NCBI GenBank assembly: GCA_964583985.1
Contig: CAZOYD010000027.1
Location: 1 to 41,970, forward strand
Source of the DNA: an uncultured archaeon
GTDB taxonomy: Archaea; Asgardarchaeota; Lokiarchaeia; Sigyniarchaeales; SOKP01
Length of the DNA stretch: 41,970 nt
Direction: 5' to 3'
Below, piece after piece: positions 1 through 39,265 of the stretch (position 1 is the stretch's first letter; each line of letters starts with the position of its first letter). Both the position numbers and the translations under genes were made by a program. The notes under the pieces are model-generated. The model saw nothing but the letters and a program-made list of their open reading frames with translations. It was not told where the DNA came from and did no database searches.

Positions 1-54
1 CTTAAATCTAGAAGTTCCACTCTCTCCCTTTAGATCTGATTTTTCTAATACCAT
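1..54 (-). CDS. Possible 5' end of a gene running off the window (MVLEKSDLKGESGTSRFK...)
   Basis: ATG at 54 followed by 18 open codons to the window edge; no homology recognisable. Confidence 0.3.
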   Translation of the reverse strand, partial: MVLEKSDLKGESGTSRFK

Positions 55-334
55 CTTATTTTTGCATTTTTATGATTATTTGAAATAATATTTGAAAGTA
101 TTTATATATCTAGGATAAGTAAGCCGATCGTTCAGAAACACAATCTAATATTAATAGGAACGATTTCCGCATATGCAAAATATGATTAGTTTAAAGAGCT
201 CAAAAATGGAGAGAAAAGTGATAAATTTGATGGATATTAGTTTTGCAGAAATAGTATTTTATATCACTTTTTTTCCACACGTAGGATAAATAGATTGTCC
301 TTCTGGGAGAATTCTTCGCCTAAATTTGTGTACT

Positions 335-19491: not shown

Positions 19492-19584
19492 GGCCCTTGA
19501 CGGTTGGGGTGGTCTCTGACGCTGGGCTTCAAACCCAGTTATCCTGCGGAGGGATAGCGGTTCGATTCCGCTCGAGGGCCGCCA
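19492..19584 (+). tRNA. selC: tRNA-Sec (anticodon UCA), 9/4 fold, CCA encoded
   Basis: 9-bp acceptor GGCCCTTGA/TCGAGGGCC, G73, CCA; 7-bp D stem GTTGGGG/CTCTGAC with TGGT loop; 6-bp anticodon stem GCTGGG/CCCAGT with loop CTTCAAA; long variable arm; 4-bp T stem GCGG/CCGC. Confidence 0.97.
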
Positions 19585-33283: not shown

Positions 33284-33583
33284 TTAAAACAAACTCCCTA
33301 TTCCTGTAGGTTCTTCTTCCTCTTCCTCTTCCTCTTCTTTTTTAACTTCCTTAACTTCCGCTGTAGCGGGTGCAGCACCACCAACAGGAGCTGCCATTAT
33401 AGGAGCTGCAGCAGCAGAACTAATAATATCATCAATATTTGCTTCTTTTAGCCCAGCAACGAGCTTAGTAATCTGAGAATTATCGATATCTGCTCCAGCA
33501 GCTTTTAGTACTTTTTCAATGGCACTATCCGTGATACTTTTACCTGCTTTATGTAGAAGCAAGGCGGCGTATATACTTTCCAT
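33284..33583 (-). CDS. rpl12: Ribosomal stalk protein P1 (archaeal L12)
   Basis: MESIYAALLLHKAGK...Ala-rich hinge, acidic tail, GIGSLF. Confidence 0.97.
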   Translation of the reverse strand: MESIYAALLLHKAGKSITDSAIEKVLKAAGADIDNSQITKLVAGLKEANIDDIISSAAAAPIMAAPVGGAAPATAEVKEVKKEEEEEEEEEPTGIGSLF

Positions 33584-33654: not shown

Positions 33655-34626
33655 TTAACCAAAAAGGCCTCCTATCCCAACTTCTTCATCTTCTTCCTCC
33701 TCCTCTTCTTTATCTTTAGAAGGTTTGGAAGAACTTTCACTCGAAGGAGTTGGAAGACCTTCACCCAAAAGCATCACGTTCAAAATCGTGGCATTTGAAA
33801 CGGCTTTTCGGATATATTCATCTCTCATGTCTTCAATGTAAACGGGTGATTCAAATAAGATTCCAAGCGCTTGTCTATAAGCTTTTTGAATCATTGGCTT
33901 GAGAGTTTCTTCATCTATAACGCCAAGTTCAAGAGCTAAATGTTGAGCTGTTAAATAGGCGGATGCAATCTCCTGCTTGAATGCCTCGAAATTCATGTAT
34001 ATCACGTCAGCTGAGTAGATTTCTCCATCACTCCACGCATAATGAATTTTAACGACGGATTCTATAGGTGCCACACCCAACTTCTTCAAAACTGCTGCTT
34101 GCTTTACATTAACGAAATCTCCCGCTTTATGAGTTCGTGTGGCTTCACGTATCCAAATTGTATCATTTTGAATTTGTGTTGGTAATCGCAATGTCATGTT
34201 CAGTTCACTAATAACTTGCCCAGTAGGTAAACCTGTATCTCCAGCAGGAACCCAAATATCAACCGGAGTTATATCATCCGGCTTAGCTGGAATCATCCAT
34301 AAATTATCAATCAAGATCTTCTTTAGTTCAAACACATCCATGTCTGTAAAGCATAGAGCTGCTTGTCCGGGAATATTATTAGCAAGTTCATCTAAATTTT
34401 CCTTTTTTGATTCATTTTTAAACCGTTCAATCGCTCTAATCTGTAAATTTTTCTTTGACATTTTAATGATAGCCTTTCCACGTATCAATTTTCGAATGTC
34501 TTGAACTTGCTTGTCATTCAAGTTGCCCACTTTTAATACCATTATGTTTTTGTACTTGTTGAATAGTTCTATCAAGGAATCAACTTCATCTAATTTCCAT
34601 TGTGGAATATGCTTATTTCCAATCAT
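33655..34626 (-). CDS. rpl10: Ribosomal protein uL10 (P0)
   Basis: IPQWKLDEV, MSKKNL, VPAGDTGLPTG, acidic tail ending GIGGLFG. Confidence 0.97.
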   Translation of the reverse strand: MIGNKHIPQWKLDEVDSLIELFNKYKNIMVLKVGNLNDKQVQDIRKLIRGKAIIKMSKKNLQIRAIERFKNESKKENLDELANNIPGQAALCFTDMDVFELKKILIDNLWMIPAKPDDITPVDIWVPAGDTGLPTGQVISELNMTLRLPTQIQNDTIWIREATRTHKAGDFVNVKQAAVLKKLGVAPIESVVKIHYAWSDGEIYSADVIYMNFEAFKQEIASAYLTAQHLALELGVIDEETLKPMIQKAYRQALGILFESPVYIEDMRDEYIRKAVSNATILNVMLLGEGLPTPSSESSSKPSKDKEEEEEEDEEVGIGGLFG

Positions 34627-34630
34627 TTTA

Positions 34631-35359
34631 TCACACCTTTACTCCTTTTAAGAATTGTTCGTCAATTTTTACTGGGCGTCCCATCGTAGTTTTTAGGTAC
34701 ATGGATTTGATATTGTTAAATTTGTGTGGCATTTGATCTGCAATGTAATTAACAACCGTCTTAAGATTCTCAAATATTTTCTCTTGTTCCATTGATTTCT
34801 TTCCAATTTTAACTTGAACCGTAGGTTGTTTTTTTAGCTGAATCCGAATGACTTTTAAATAGCGTTCAATCGTTAATTTAAGGTCTTCTGGGGTTGAAAT
34901 GATCCCGTATCCACTCGGAAATGGTTTTGGCATTTTTCCTAAAGGTCCTAAAAATCGAGCTAAATATCGTGCGACATTTGGCATCATTGTATCCTCAACA
35001 ATGAAAAAATCATATTTTTTCACAAATCGTTTCTTTTCTTTCTTTTCTTCACTGTTCAATTTAACTAATCCATCAATATCGATTGTATCTAAACCTAAAT
35101 TCTTCGCTTCCATTAAAATTTCATCAGAAGCAATAACGCATACATTTGGTTTATCTAATAAGAGAATATCATATGGAAGGATAATTTCCTTATCAATTCT
35201 TTGTTTTGGATCACTTAAGTTAATGTCCTTGAGATTCATTACAAAATCAATCGTCTCGTCAAATTTCCGATTTTTTTCTTTAAATCCATCTTTTTTAAAT
35301 GTTGAAAACTGAATAGCCGCATTTATTGATTTCTTCAGTAATTTATCATCTACTTTCAT
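34631..35359 (-). CDS. rpl1: Ribosomal protein uL1
   Basis: RKFDETIDF, LGPLGKMPKP, YLKTTMGRP. Confidence 0.97.
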   Translation of the reverse strand: MKVDDKLLKKSINAAIQFSTFKKDGFKEKNRKFDETIDFVMNLKDINLSDPKQRIDKEIILPYDILLLDKPNVCVIASDEILMEAKNLGLDTIDIDGLVKLNSEEKKEKKRFVKKYDFFIVEDTMMPNVARYLARFLGPLGKMPKPFPSGYGIISTPEDLKLTIERYLKVIRIQLKKQPTVQVKIGKKSMEQEKIFENLKTVVNYIADQMPHKFNNIKSMYLKTTMGRPVKIDEQFLKGVKV

Positions 35360-35362
35360 TGT

Positions 35363-35954
35363 TTACATCTCCCCCGTAATTCTATCATCATAATCTCCAT
35401 TTTCTATGCGTTGTTGAATCTTTCGAGGATCTTCCCCCTCTACTGTAACCCCTATTGATAAAGCAGTTCCTAACACTGATTTAATAGCTGCTTTATATGT
35501 TCGTTCTAAAAAAATCTCTTTTTTTGCTTCTACGACATTAATGATTTGATCAAGATTAATATCTCCAATCTTGCTATCTGAGCAAGAAGCACTCCCCTTT
35601 TGAGCTCCAATCTCCTTTAATAGTAATGATGCTGTCGAAGGAGTCTCTATGAAAATTTCAAATTTTTTAGTCTCAGGATCACATACAATTTTAACTGGTA
35701 CAGTTAACCCCTTGAATATCATTGTCTTTTCATTGACTGTGTCGACCACATCCTTAATATATGCACCTAAATCCGAAATGATATTAGATTATGCCAGTTG
35801 GGCCGACGGCAGGACCTTTACCTTTTATTGTTAAAACGATTTGTTTTAGGAAATAGGCGGCCCGCCTGATGCTTTTGGGGTTTTAATCGAGTAGATTAAT
35901 AACGTTCCCACCAGTCACGAGGGCCTTAATGGTTATTTTTCCTTTTTCACTCAC
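35363..35954 (-). CDS. rpl11: Ribosomal protein uL11, spliced from four exons: 35954-35905, 35873-35853, 35817-35789, 35760-35363 (165 aa)
   Basis: GTG start at 35954 with GGTGA RBS. Joined exons read [46 protein letters not shown]..., in frame with the ORF-track C-terminus (GLTVPVKI, TPSTASLL, VLGTALSIGVTVEG); first gene of L11-L1-L10-L12. Confidence 0.9.
35761..35788 (-). other. rpl11 intron 3 (28 nt), BHB-type
   Basis: TCTAATATCATTTCGGATTTAGGTGCAT; helix GCAU/GUGC, bulges AAU and AUA, intron helices CUAA/UUAG and AUC/GAU. Confidence 0.85.
35818..35852 (-). other. rpl11 intron 2 (35 nt), BHB-type
   Basis: TTCCTAAAACAAATCGTTTTAACAATAAAAGGTAA; helix GCCU/AGGU, bulges AUU and AAA, exon-exon helix GGGCC/GGUCC, internal stem UAAAAC/GUUUUA. 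Confidence 0.85.
35874..35904 (-). other. rpl11 intron 1 (31 nt), BHB-type
   Basis: CGTTATTAATCTACTCGATTAAAACCCCAAA; helix UGGG/CCCA, bulges AAC and AAA, intron helices GUU/AAC and UUAAUC/GAUUAA; exon-exon helix imperfect. Confidence 0.85.
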
Positions 35955-36006
35955 ATATTCTCACCGTATTCTTTTTATTATATAGATTTATTATCAAAAT
36001 ATATCT

Positions 36007-36475: not shown

Positions 36476-36919
36476 TTAATAAAAGGGTTTGAAGTCTCTC
36501 CGCTTCCCTATTGTATACCCAATGAATCCCCCTAAGCCAAAGCATAATAATGTAGTCCCTACACTGAAAAGGATCTGATAGATATGCTCTGAATCTCTTA
36601 ATGGGGCCCAAGGAGCCCCCTGAAAAATGTATGCAATTCCAAACTCTATTATCCCTCCGAATAATGCCGCTCCAGTTATAATAAAAACATATTTATAAAA
36701 AGTTCTGCTATCTAATTTTCTAATGTAGAAGATGCTGATTAAAAATACCGGGATTCCTATAGTAGTTAGGACTATGCCTATTAAAGGTATGATCCCCATG
36801 CTATAACCTATCCAACCGATCAGCGTTGTGCTTATATAAACACCAATCGCTATCCATAACCATTTCTCTACAATTGATTTTCCAAAAGCTCTTTTCTTTT
36901 TTTTCTCTCTCATGGACAC
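36476..36919 (-). CDS. 4-TM hypothetical membrane protein
   Basis: Four hydrophobic segments; APWAPLR motif shared with the next gene. Confidence 0.7.
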   Translation of the reverse strand: MSMREKKKKRAFGKSIVEKWLWIAIGVYISTTLIGWIGYSMGIIPLIGIVLTTIGIPVFLISIFYIRKLDSRTFYKYVFIITGAALFGGIIEFGIAYIFQGAPWAPLRDSEHIYQILFSVGTTLLCFGLGGFIGYTIGKRRDFKPFY

Positions 36920-37056: not shown

Positions 37057-37557
37057 TCATTCAATTTCAAAACGAGTAGGGGGTCTCCATTTTATTTTCT
37101 TGCCAATTCTGTACGTTATATAAGCTGTAATTGCATATGAAGATATTACAATTAGGAGATTAATCCTTCCCCTTATTACCGCATCTCCAATCAAAATTCG
37201 TAAGGGAGCCCAAGGAGCTTGAACAAGTACATAACCAATAATAAGCCACATAATACAACCAAAAACAAGTGTACCGCCAACTACCAAGAGTATTCTAGGT
37301 ATGAACTCCACGAGTTTAGGTTTTCTAATACGACTAGCAGTATATGTTAAAAGAAAAATTGCTAAGCCCAAGATTGTTGAAAAGATAACATGTCCTAAAT
37401 CGTAAATCCCGACAAAAAATAACCCCCACGATGATATCATCCATGATCCATAAGCTCCAATATAAATATAAGCCCAGTTTTTATTAAGATTCTTCGAGAA
37501 AATTTTGATTCTTTCTTTCAAGTTCCTTTTATTTGAATTCTTTTCATTATCATTCAT
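37057..37557 (-). CDS. 4-TM hypothetical membrane protein (paralog)
   Basis: APWAPLR motif and C-terminal Y.IGK shared with 36476-36919. Confidence 0.7.
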   Translation of the reverse strand: MNDNEKNSNKRNLKERIKIFSKNLNKNWAYIYIGAYGSWMISSWGLFFVGIYDLGHVIFSTILGLAIFLLTYTASRIRKPKLVEFIPRILLVVGGTLVFGCIMWLIIGYVLVQAPWAPLRILIGDAVIRGRINLLIVISSYAITAYITYRIGKKIKWRPPTRFEIE

Positions 37558-37884: not shown

Positions 37885-38583
37885 TCACTTATTATTTATA
37901 TCTTCTAAAATAACTTCATGTTTAATCGTGCCAATTTTTTCAATTGATGCTTCAATAATATCTCCTGGTAATATTGGGCTAATTCCACCTGGAGTTCCAG
38001 TGGCAACAATATCTCCTTTTTCAAGAGTCACGTATTTTGATATATAATCGATGATTTCAGGAATTCTGAAGATCAAATGCTTAGTGTTGGAAGATTGCTT
38101 TATAGATCCATTAACAGAAAGCTCTATTGTTAAATCATGAGGATCTCCTATCTCATTAGGGGATGCTATTTTAGGTCCAATAGGACCAAACGTGTCAAAA
38201 TTTTTACTTCGATACCAGGGTAAATTTATATTTCTATCTGCTTTTTGCATGGATCTTGCGGTCATGTCAAGGAAAATCGTGTAACCTTGAATATATTCGT
38301 AGGCATTCTCGGTTTTAACATTTTTACACGTTTTTAAGATCACAAATGCTAATTCAACTTCATGATCTACGCTTCTTTTTTCTTCATCATCATACAATAC
38401 TCTTGGATAGGTAATCGGTTCATTGTTGGTGATTAACGTGTTTAGGGTTTTCGCGAAAAATACGGGTTCTTTTGGCACTGGTGAACCTGTTTCTTTGATA
38501 TGATCTAAATAATTCCGGCCCAAGCAAATGATTTTTGTAGGATTAATCTCTGTATTTCCAATCTTAAACACTTCCCATCTCAC
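37885..38583 (-). CDS. Fumarylacetoacetate hydrolase family protein
   Basis: KIICLGRNYLDH, DHEVELA, DMTAR, KNFDTFGPIGP, GDIVATGTPGG; true start may be GTG at 38571. Confidence 0.93.
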   Translation of the reverse strand: MRWEVFKIGNTEINPTKIICLGRNYLDHIKETGSPVPKEPVFFAKTLNTLITNNEPITYPRVLYDDEEKRSVDHEVELAFVILKTCKNVKTENAYEYIQGYTIFLDMTARSMQKADRNINLPWYRSKNFDTFGPIGPKIASPNEIGDPHDLTIELSVNGSIKQSSNTKHLIFRIPEIIDYISKYVTLEKGDIVATGTPGGISPILPGDIIEASIEKIGTIKHEVILEDINNK

Positions 38584-39265
38584 CTTCTAAAATAACTTTA
38601 TTTGAAAGAGTACCTATTTTTTCTATCGTAGCATCTAATACATCTCCCGGTTTTATGGGACCAATTCCACTGGGAGTTCCCGTAGCGATGATATCTCCGG
38701 GTACTAACGTAAAAAATCGTGTTATGTATTCCATGAGTTCAGGGATTTTAAACAGCAAATATTTCGTATTAGAATGCTGTTTTATTTCTCCATTTAATCT
38801 TAACTCGAGATTTAAATCATGAGGATCCTTTATCTCATTCACATCTGCAATTCGGGGTCCTATAGGACCAAAACTATCAAAGGATTTTGAACGGAACCAA
38901 GGTAATTTCGAGAAAATATCTTTAATTTGCATCTTTCGAGCGGTAATGTCATTAAAAACGGTGTAACCTTGAATATGTTCATAGGAATTCGCAGCTTTAA
39001 TATGTTTACAAGTTTTTGAGATAATGAATGCTAATTCCACTTCGTAATCCACGCGATTCATTTTAGGATCTTCATAAAGCATTTTTGGATAAATTATTGG
39101 TTGATCATTGCTAATAAGGCAATTTAAAGTCTTAGGAAAAAGGACTGGTTCTTTAGGTATTTCTAACTTTGTTTCTTCGATATGATCCATGTAGTTGGTA
39201 CCGACACAAATGATTTTTGAAGGATTGATCTCCAATTCTCCTATCATCATCTTAAAACCGAACAC
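38564..39265 (-). CDS. Fumarylacetoacetate hydrolase family protein (tandem paralog)
   Basis: KIICVGTNYMDH, DYEVELA, NDITAR, KSFDSFGPIGP, GDIIATGTPSG. Confidence 0.93.
   Translation of the reverse strand: MFGFKMMIGELEINPSKIICVGTNYMDHIEETKLEIPKEPVLFPKTLNCLISNDQPIIYPKMLYEDPKMNRVDYEVELAFIISKTCKHIKAANSYEHIQGYTVFNDITARKMQIKDIFSKLPWFRSKSFDSFGPIGPRIADVNEIKDPHDLNLELRLNGEIKQHSNTKYLLFKIPELMEYITRFFTLVPGDIIATGTPSGIGPIKPGDVLDATIEKIGTLSNKVILEGEMGSV

Follow-up and report, generated by a model that had tools for sequence, protein, structure and literature searches.

In the literature that we searched, splicing of archaeal coding sequence by the tRNA splicing endonuclease is known for cbf5 only, with one intron. 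The cbf5 pre-mRNA of Desulfurococcales and Sulfolobales carries a bulge-helix-bulge (BHB) intron (Watanabe 2002; Yoshinari 2006; Yokobori 2009, PMC2738675; the same papers are cited in PMC5829648), and a 2020 study gives cbf5 as the only BHB intron reported in archaeal mRNA (PMC7714728). A BHB element in the 5' UTR of the Haloferax volcanii HVO_1309 mRNA is cut both in vivo and in vitro, and its removal alters expression (PMC7714728). Recent work on Asgard introns covers tRNA genes only (PMC11291895; preprint 10.64898/2026.10.13.758758). For BHB introns in Asgard protein genes we found no report in the literature searched, many subscription papers lying outside its reach.

We analysed a window of 41,970 nucleotides (positions 1 to 41,970 of contig CAZOYD010000027.1) from an Asgard (Promethearchaeota) genome in which the ribosomal-protein gene uL11 heads a uL11-uL1-uL10-P1 gene order. 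The uL11 gene lies on the minus strand, with a GTG start at 35954 and its stop at 35363, and an earlier note on this sequence had assigned it three introns, each with its own in-frame stop, all of which must be removed. We set the junctions by alignment to intronless orthologues of the same genus together with a search for BHB geometry. This gave the following features (window coordinates; in the bulges a hyphen marks the predicted cut):

35961..35965, minus strand: Shine-Dalgarno-like GGTGA, 6 nt 5' of the GTG, a motif kept in congeners
35905..35954, minus strand: uL11 exon 1, 50 nt, with the GTG start, 16 residues and 2 nt of a Lys codon
35874..35904, minus strand: predicted uL11 intron 1, 31 nt, central helix UGGG/CCCA, bulges AA-C and AA-A
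35853..35873, minus strand: uL11 exon 2, a 21-nt micro-exon encoding ASGGPP plus split codons, GC 0.67
35818..35852, minus strand: predicted uL11 intron 2, 35 nt, central helix GCCU/AGGU, bulges AU-U and AA-A
35789..35817, minus strand: uL11 exon 3, a 29-nt micro-exon encoding GPAVGPTGI plus split codons, GC 0.62
35761..35788, minus strand: predicted uL11 intron 3, 28 nt, central helix GCAU/GUGC, bulges AA-U and AU-A
35363..35760, minus strand: uL11 exon 4, 398 nt including the TAA stop, with the remaining N-terminal domain and the RNA-binding domain
34631..35359, minus strand: uL1, PF00687 at 6e-46, starting 3 nt past the uL11 stop
33655..34626, minus strand: uL10/P0, PF00466 and PF17777, with PF00428 weak and below cut-off, starting 4 nt past the uL1 stop
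33284..33583, minus strand: P1 stalk protein, 99 aa with an acidic tail, assigned by composition and position

The span that the earlier note gave for the introns, 35761-35904, has as its exact limits the start of intron 1 and the end of intron 3. All three introns lie within 66 nt of coding sequence, in a conserved Pro/Gly loop. Like cbf5, uL11 combines short BHB introns (here predicted) in coding sequence, a heteromeric tRNA splicing endonuclease and a patchy distribution among related species. It differs in having three introns within those 66 nt, separated by micro-exons of 21 and 29 nt, whereas cbf5 has one intron per gene; in being a ribosomal-protein gene at the head of a polycistronic operon; in belonging to an Asgard archaeon and not to Crenarchaeota; and in a much faster turnover within one genus. 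The tRNA introns of Thermoproteales and Asgard archaea (Sugahara 2008; PMC11291895; 10.64898/2026.10.13.758758) resemble those of uL11 in several respects: one gene can carry several mini-introns, the motifs include relaxed hBH and HBh' forms, removal depends (for uL11 by prediction) on an (alpha-beta)2 EndA of broad specificity, and gains and losses are repeated. The uL11 introns, however, interrupt an mRNA, whose exons lack a tRNA scaffold to keep them together and in which the exon half of the motif has to conform to the reading frame. HVO_1309 is similar in presenting a BHB within an mRNA as a substrate of the archaeal splicing endonuclease, with the cutting shown for HVO_1309 and inferred for uL11, but its element is single, lies in an untranslated leader and belongs to a euryarchaeon with a homodimeric enzyme.

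The spliced uL11 coding sequence is 498 nt long and encodes 165 aa with no internal stop. The exon 4 part matches PF00298 at 1.6e-16 and, partially and below cut-off, PF03946. Before splicing, the 38 N-terminal codons are distributed over four pieces in two alternating frames, and gene callers therefore report only a 128-aa C-terminal fragment. The ribosome-binding site and start, said by the earlier note to be intact, are indeed so: GGTGA precedes the GTG by 6 nt and is kept in relatives, which likewise begin at this codon, with ATG or GTG. From their spacing, uL11 and uL1 probably share one operon. Elsewhere in the window, both Rfam and ARAGORN call a tRNA-Sec at 19492-19584 (plus strand), the sole tRNA that either tool finds there. 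Upstream of uL11 lie two neighbouring small membrane-protein ORFs of 147 and 166 aa (36476-36919 and 37057-37557, minus strand) with a common APWAPLR motif, the former giving no Pfam match, and two tandem, closely similar paralogous ORFs of 232 and 233 aa (37885-38583 and 38564-39265, minus strand) that overlap by 20 nt.

The three inserts have the same architecture. At the junctions set by homology, each forms a 3-4-3 BHB with a perfect 4-bp helix between 3-nt bulges, in which four exon bases pair with four bases close to the 3' end of the intron, and the cuts fall past the second base of the bulge. In this region such a helix occurs in 2.6% of arbitrary placements. Allowing for two or three equivalent placements per junction, we estimate the chance of finding it at three junctions of three as ∼1e–4 to 1e–3. 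Folded on its own, each intron gives the expected motif. Intron 1 has a strong 9-bp inner hairpin with one bulged A and an outer helix pushed aside by an internal loop; intron 2 has a 5-bp exon-exon outer helix (GGGCC/GGUCC) and a non-adjacent inner hairpin AAAAC/GUUUU (fold z = –3.4); intron 3 has an inner hairpin of 4 + 3 bp and an outer helix of 2 bp. Compared with the strict hBHBh' arrangement, the motifs appear as relaxed HBh' or hBH forms, introns 1 and 3 being classed as relaxed because their outer helices are weak or displaced.

The whole-region fold shows no extra stability relative to shuffles (z = –1.1), and the case for the BHBs therefore stands on geometry and comparison rather than on energy. 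In the full unspliced context the predicted helix probability is 0.03–0.27 for intron 3 and, depending on the flanks, 0.1–0.6 for intron 2. A splicing order read from these probabilities was dropped, as the values shift with the flanks chosen. The earlier note held that the three folds use non-overlapping exon segments and could form at the same time. We saw no overlap between the segments, and a joint structure is feasible (–48.4 versus –54.5 kcal/mol for the minimum free energy fold). Rfam at gathering thresholds returned no match in or near uL11.

The comparison covered 36 distinct congener uL11 loci from independent assemblies. A perfect helix is found in 27 of the 28 homologous inserts that relatives carry at the three sites. 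The intron 1 helix varies among relatives (UGGG/CCCA, AGGG/CCCU, UGGG/CCCG and AGGG/CUCU), with a first pair that is U-A, A-U or U-G, that is, changed by compensatory or wobble substitutions. For intron 3, 88.8% of cells are paired across 11 homologues, versus 23–44% when the partners are slid. In three pairs of its inner helix both partners have changed, and only 9 of 500 shuffles attained the covariation score, a figure whose weight is limited by the relatedness of the sequences. Assembly error was considered as a source of the inserts and rejected, since assemblies made independently in different studies have the introns too.

The enzymes that such introns would need are encoded in the genome. 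There are two paralogues with the tRNA_int_endo (EndA) domain, in the regions of contig 4, 51753-51977, and contig 3, 71349-71597. The first is alpha-like, keeps the Tyr/His/Lys context and resembles the catalytic subunits of crenarchaeal heterotetramers (3P1Z_B, 1e–36); in the second the catalytic Tyr is replaced by Phe and the His by Ser, as expected of a structural subunit. RtcB is also present (3e–167). Asgard archaea have been assigned an (alpha-beta)2 EndA with a broad-specificity L1 loop (PMC5829648). The dependence of uL11 on EndA and RtcB that the earlier note had proposed gains support from this alpha/beta pair, from RtcB and from BHBs at the exact junctions, and we suggest that EndA and RtcB most likely remove the uL11 introns.

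Several observations indicate that the gene is still in use. uL11 is single-copy, and no second L11 N-terminal domain was found in this genome, which is scored 100% complete. Over the 22 codons that span the introns, the spliced product equals that of intronless orthologues save for one residue, which is Lys here and Ser or Ala in relatives. Across 17 relatives the protein sequence of these codons is identical save at one position while synonymous sites vary freely, and in the 30-codon block of exons 1–3 dN/dS is 0.03–0.15 where dS could be estimated. The exons had been described as undecayed, with dN/dS of exons 1–3 set in advance as a test; the values point to strong purifying selection and speak against pseudogenisation. 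That the inserts disable an unused, decaying uL11 is suggested only by the 128-aa C-terminal fragment that standard gene callers see. Against it stand the essential role of the gene, its single copy in a genome scored as complete, the low dN/dS, and the persistence of the interrupted arrangement with intact exons in many species, and we give it next to no credence.

Nearly the same can be said of translational recoding, in which ribosomes would bypass or frameshift over the three inserts with no RNA splicing. Each insert does have a hairpin and an early stop, like the gap of T4 gene 60. However, at none of the three gaps are there matching take-off and landing codons that resume the uL11 frame, and the canonical 3-4-3 geometry and the covariation point to an endonuclease. 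To our knowledge, bypass gaps of 28–35 nt, three of them within ∼160 nt of unspliced sequence, are without precedent. We regard this reading, too, as extremely improbable.

Taken together, the replication of the BHBs in relatives, the low dN/dS, the single copy, and the EndA pair with RtcB lead us to infer that splicing of uL11 is obligatory. The statement that all three introns need removal to make uL11 is in this sense borne out by the geometry, the restored frame and the signature of selection, but as a conclusion drawn from sequence it is sound and trivial at once. We scanned metagenome contigs twice with exact patterns of the spliced junctions, once for exon 1-2-3 and once for exon 3-4, and obtained no match; hence no cDNA-like or intronless conspecific sequence was seen there. 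Among the best 120 public homologues, no species was represented by both a truncated and a full-length uL11, one fragment aside.

The public record of this protein reflects the introns as well. Of the same best 120 homologues, 43 are truncated predictions of 114–152 aa that start inside or just past an intron, so that about one-third of the public uL11 predictions of the clade are truncated because gene callers stop at the introns. Some of these carry the name '50S ribosomal protein L11' in NCBI MAG annotations. Three of the homologues (P0039, P0048 and P0076) begin at ...GPTG, a possible sign of a further, fourth intron site between GPAV and GPTG.

We then consider the in-frame stops that the earlier note had pointed out. 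Reading from the GTG at 35954, we confirmed a TAA in each intron with the codon strings as quoted. Retention of intron 1 reads ...CTC GAT TAA, with the TAA at 35885-35883 and a 23-aa product; retention of intron 2 alone reads ...ATT TCC TAA (35848-35846, 25 aa); and retention of intron 3 alone reads ...ATA ATC TAA (35786-35784, 34 aa). The lengths of 31, 35 and 28 nt are likewise not multiples of three, as claimed. In shuffled introns 1, 2 and 3, however, the probability of an in-frame stop is 0.48, 0.78 and 0.55, from which stops in all three have P ∼0.20. In the genus, 12 of 18 introns contain an in-frame stop versus 11.0 expected, and the six without one, all from relatives, cause a frame shift only. 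Indivisibility of the length by three was tried as a rule and rejected, since 4 of the 28 homologous inserts measure 30 or 36 nt. The in-frame stops are a chance-level feature of short AT-rich inserts. Together with the lengths they are incidental and form no selected fail-safe, and the presence of a stop in each intron adds nothing past the need to splice.

The distribution of the introns among congeners is patchy. No intron is present at uL11 in 15 of the 36 loci, and all three occur together in the present genome only. The closest relatives (88–92% protein identity) have no intron, intron 2 only, intron 1 only, or introns 1 and 3. On a tree of 33 taxa built from the flanking uL11-uL1 DNA, introns 1, 2 and 3, present in 8, 6 and 11 taxa, need a minimum of 7, 5 and 9 state changes (at least 21 in total), near the maximum possible; deep branches of this tree are weak, and many of the changes fall inside well-supported shallow clades. 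The uL11 introns thus behave as dispensable passengers with a fast turnover.

The introns sit in the GC peak of uL11 (0.63–0.73 versus ∼0.35 elsewhere). Alleles with an intron all have the same exon hexamer at the 5' splice site concerned (NGGGAR in 9/9, GCCKAT in 7/7 and GCATAA in 12/12). In intronless alleles these positions vary synonymously, and the helix-forming bases are found in 7/27 (GGG at site 1), 6/29 (first-position G at site 2) and 4/24 (full hexamer at site 3). When phylogenetically independent pairs are compared, hexamer and intron are always associated in one direction, with too few pairs per site for significance. The earlier note had offered, as an alternative to regulation, that the clustering merely reflects where exon helices allow insertion. 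This gains partial support in that the hexamers track intron presence, but a crude count of permissive sites (GC-rich 4-mers followed by A) leaves the clustering partly unexplained (P 0.002–0.025).

These results bear directly on the regulatory reading of the earlier note. There it was proposed that the stop-bearing introns make uL11 output sense EndA/RtcB capacity, that cleavage in the first cistron may affect uL1-uL10-P1, and that ribosome synthesis would in this way be coupled to tRNA maturation. Some features are compatible with such a checkpoint: retention of any intron truncates the product to 23–34 aa, uL11 leads a tight series of four cistrons, with spacers of 3 and 4 nt, and the predicted BHB stability differs by intron and context, which makes partial splicing conceivable. 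A hairpin-loop feature that the introns share (see below) could also bind a factor. On the other hand, the stops are at chance level, the introns are missing from those 15 loci and change state at least 21 times in 33 taxa, and similar introns occur in unrelated genes, namely those for EF-1alpha and a Rab-like GTPase. We therefore found no support for a uL11-specific coupling of ribosome synthesis to tRNA maturation. Given the intronless loci and the number of state changes, any such control is neither conserved nor required. As the introns are dispensable, turn over and are also found in unrelated genes, the dependence on EndA and RtcB would be real but general, with no link specific to uL11. 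We consider the checkpoint improbable, and a condition-dependent effect of splicing in the present organism is about equally so.

Regulated non-spliceosomal splicing of mRNA does have a well-known eukaryotic example. In HAC1/XBP1 transcripts, stress-activated IRE1 cuts twin 7-nt loops, and RtcB or Trl1 ligates the exons. The likeness to a regulated uL11 lies in the excision of a short intron outside the spliceosome, the shift in frame and the joining by RtcB, and is one of analogy only. The nuclease in that system is IRE1, which does not recognise BHBs, whereas we found no sign of regulated cleavage for uL11, whose predicted BHB motif points to a constitutive tRNA enzyme.

Two further protein genes of the genome have inserts of the same kind. 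The EF-1alpha gene (contig 22, ∼38-129, plus strand) is broken after GRFAVRDMG by a 31-nt BHB insert (GGGU ag-u ... GCCU aa-a), removal of which restores the C-terminus, ...DMGRTVCVGIVKDL. In a gene for a Rab-like small GTPase (contig 1, 34043-34080, plus strand), a 38-nt BHB insert (GCUA aa-a ... UAGU aa-g) splits the P-loop, and its removal restores GAKDVGKT. In our reading, the uL11 introns belong to a genome-wide population of mRNA mini-introns. In 18 of 29 distinct introns the terminal loop ends in UC followed by G, versus 7.5% of shuffles. Most of these loops are NNNUC pentaloops, and the UC-G loop is common to the three uL11 sites and the EF-1alpha and Rab-like introns. The NNNUC loop is absent from three tRNA introns examined in the window. 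This shared feature, for which the passenger view does not account, may reflect a common origin or a shared constraint.

The loop feature could also mark an active mobile family of mini-introns, gained repeatedly at a few permissive sites by a reversed endonuclease/ligase reaction or by allele exchange, instead of being ancestral and lost. Whether a locus has an intron bears almost no relation to the flanking-gene tree, intron 2 of one locus (L006) is missing in its closest relatives, and the UC-ending loops extend from uL11 to the EF-1alpha and Rab-like introns at well above the shuffled frequency. Moreover, no RVT_1 reverse transcriptase, which could drive a precise, cDNA-mediated loss, was found in the assembly, mobile elements being often unassembled. 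However, introns that occupy one site are homologous in different clades, and their divergence roughly follows that of the hosts, which fits old introns with many losses or with allele exchange. A blastn-short search of the three uL11 introns against the whole genome gave only chance-length matches, so there is no intron repeat family at the sequence level, and the tree is unrooted at the relevant depth with many deep branches unsupported, which makes gain and loss inseparable. On balance we find repeated gain by such a family rather unlikely. A broader version, in which an active family of NNNUC-loop mini-introns enters and leaves mRNAs of this Asgard genus at sites where exon codons offer half a BHB, and the capacity to splice caps uL11 operon expression as a side effect, seems to us slightly better placed, though still doubtful.

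Overall, we favour obligatory splicing by EndA and RtcB of three BHB passengers, in which the stops are incidental and the enzyme dependence is general and not specific to uL11; on the sequence evidence we judge this account as a whole to be likely. In the mechanism that we envisage, the primary uL11-uL1-uL10-P1 transcript would be cut twice per intron, past nucleotide 2 of each 3-nt bulge, so that the (alpha-beta)2 splicing endonuclease would make six cuts and RtcB three joins. The four exon pieces, including the 21- and 29-nt micro-exons, would be held by exon-exon and exon-intron helices, for example by GGGCC/GGUCC across intron 2 and, across intron 1, by pairing between GUGAC and the Ala-Ser codons. 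uL11 would be encoded by the fully spliced mRNA alone. Introns would be tolerated where Gly and Pro codons can provide the GC-rich strand that the exon contributes to the central helix.

The notable object at this locus is thus a set of three predicted spliced mini-introns, with rapid turnover, in an essential Asgard ribosomal gene. If confirmed by RNA, it would mean that mRNA splicing by EndA and RtcB is routine in an Asgard lineage, which would bear on the origin of intron-rich genes and of their handling. Should repeated gain by a mobile family be true after all, gain and loss of introns in protein genes, translation genes included, would be ongoing in close archaeal relatives of eukaryotes.
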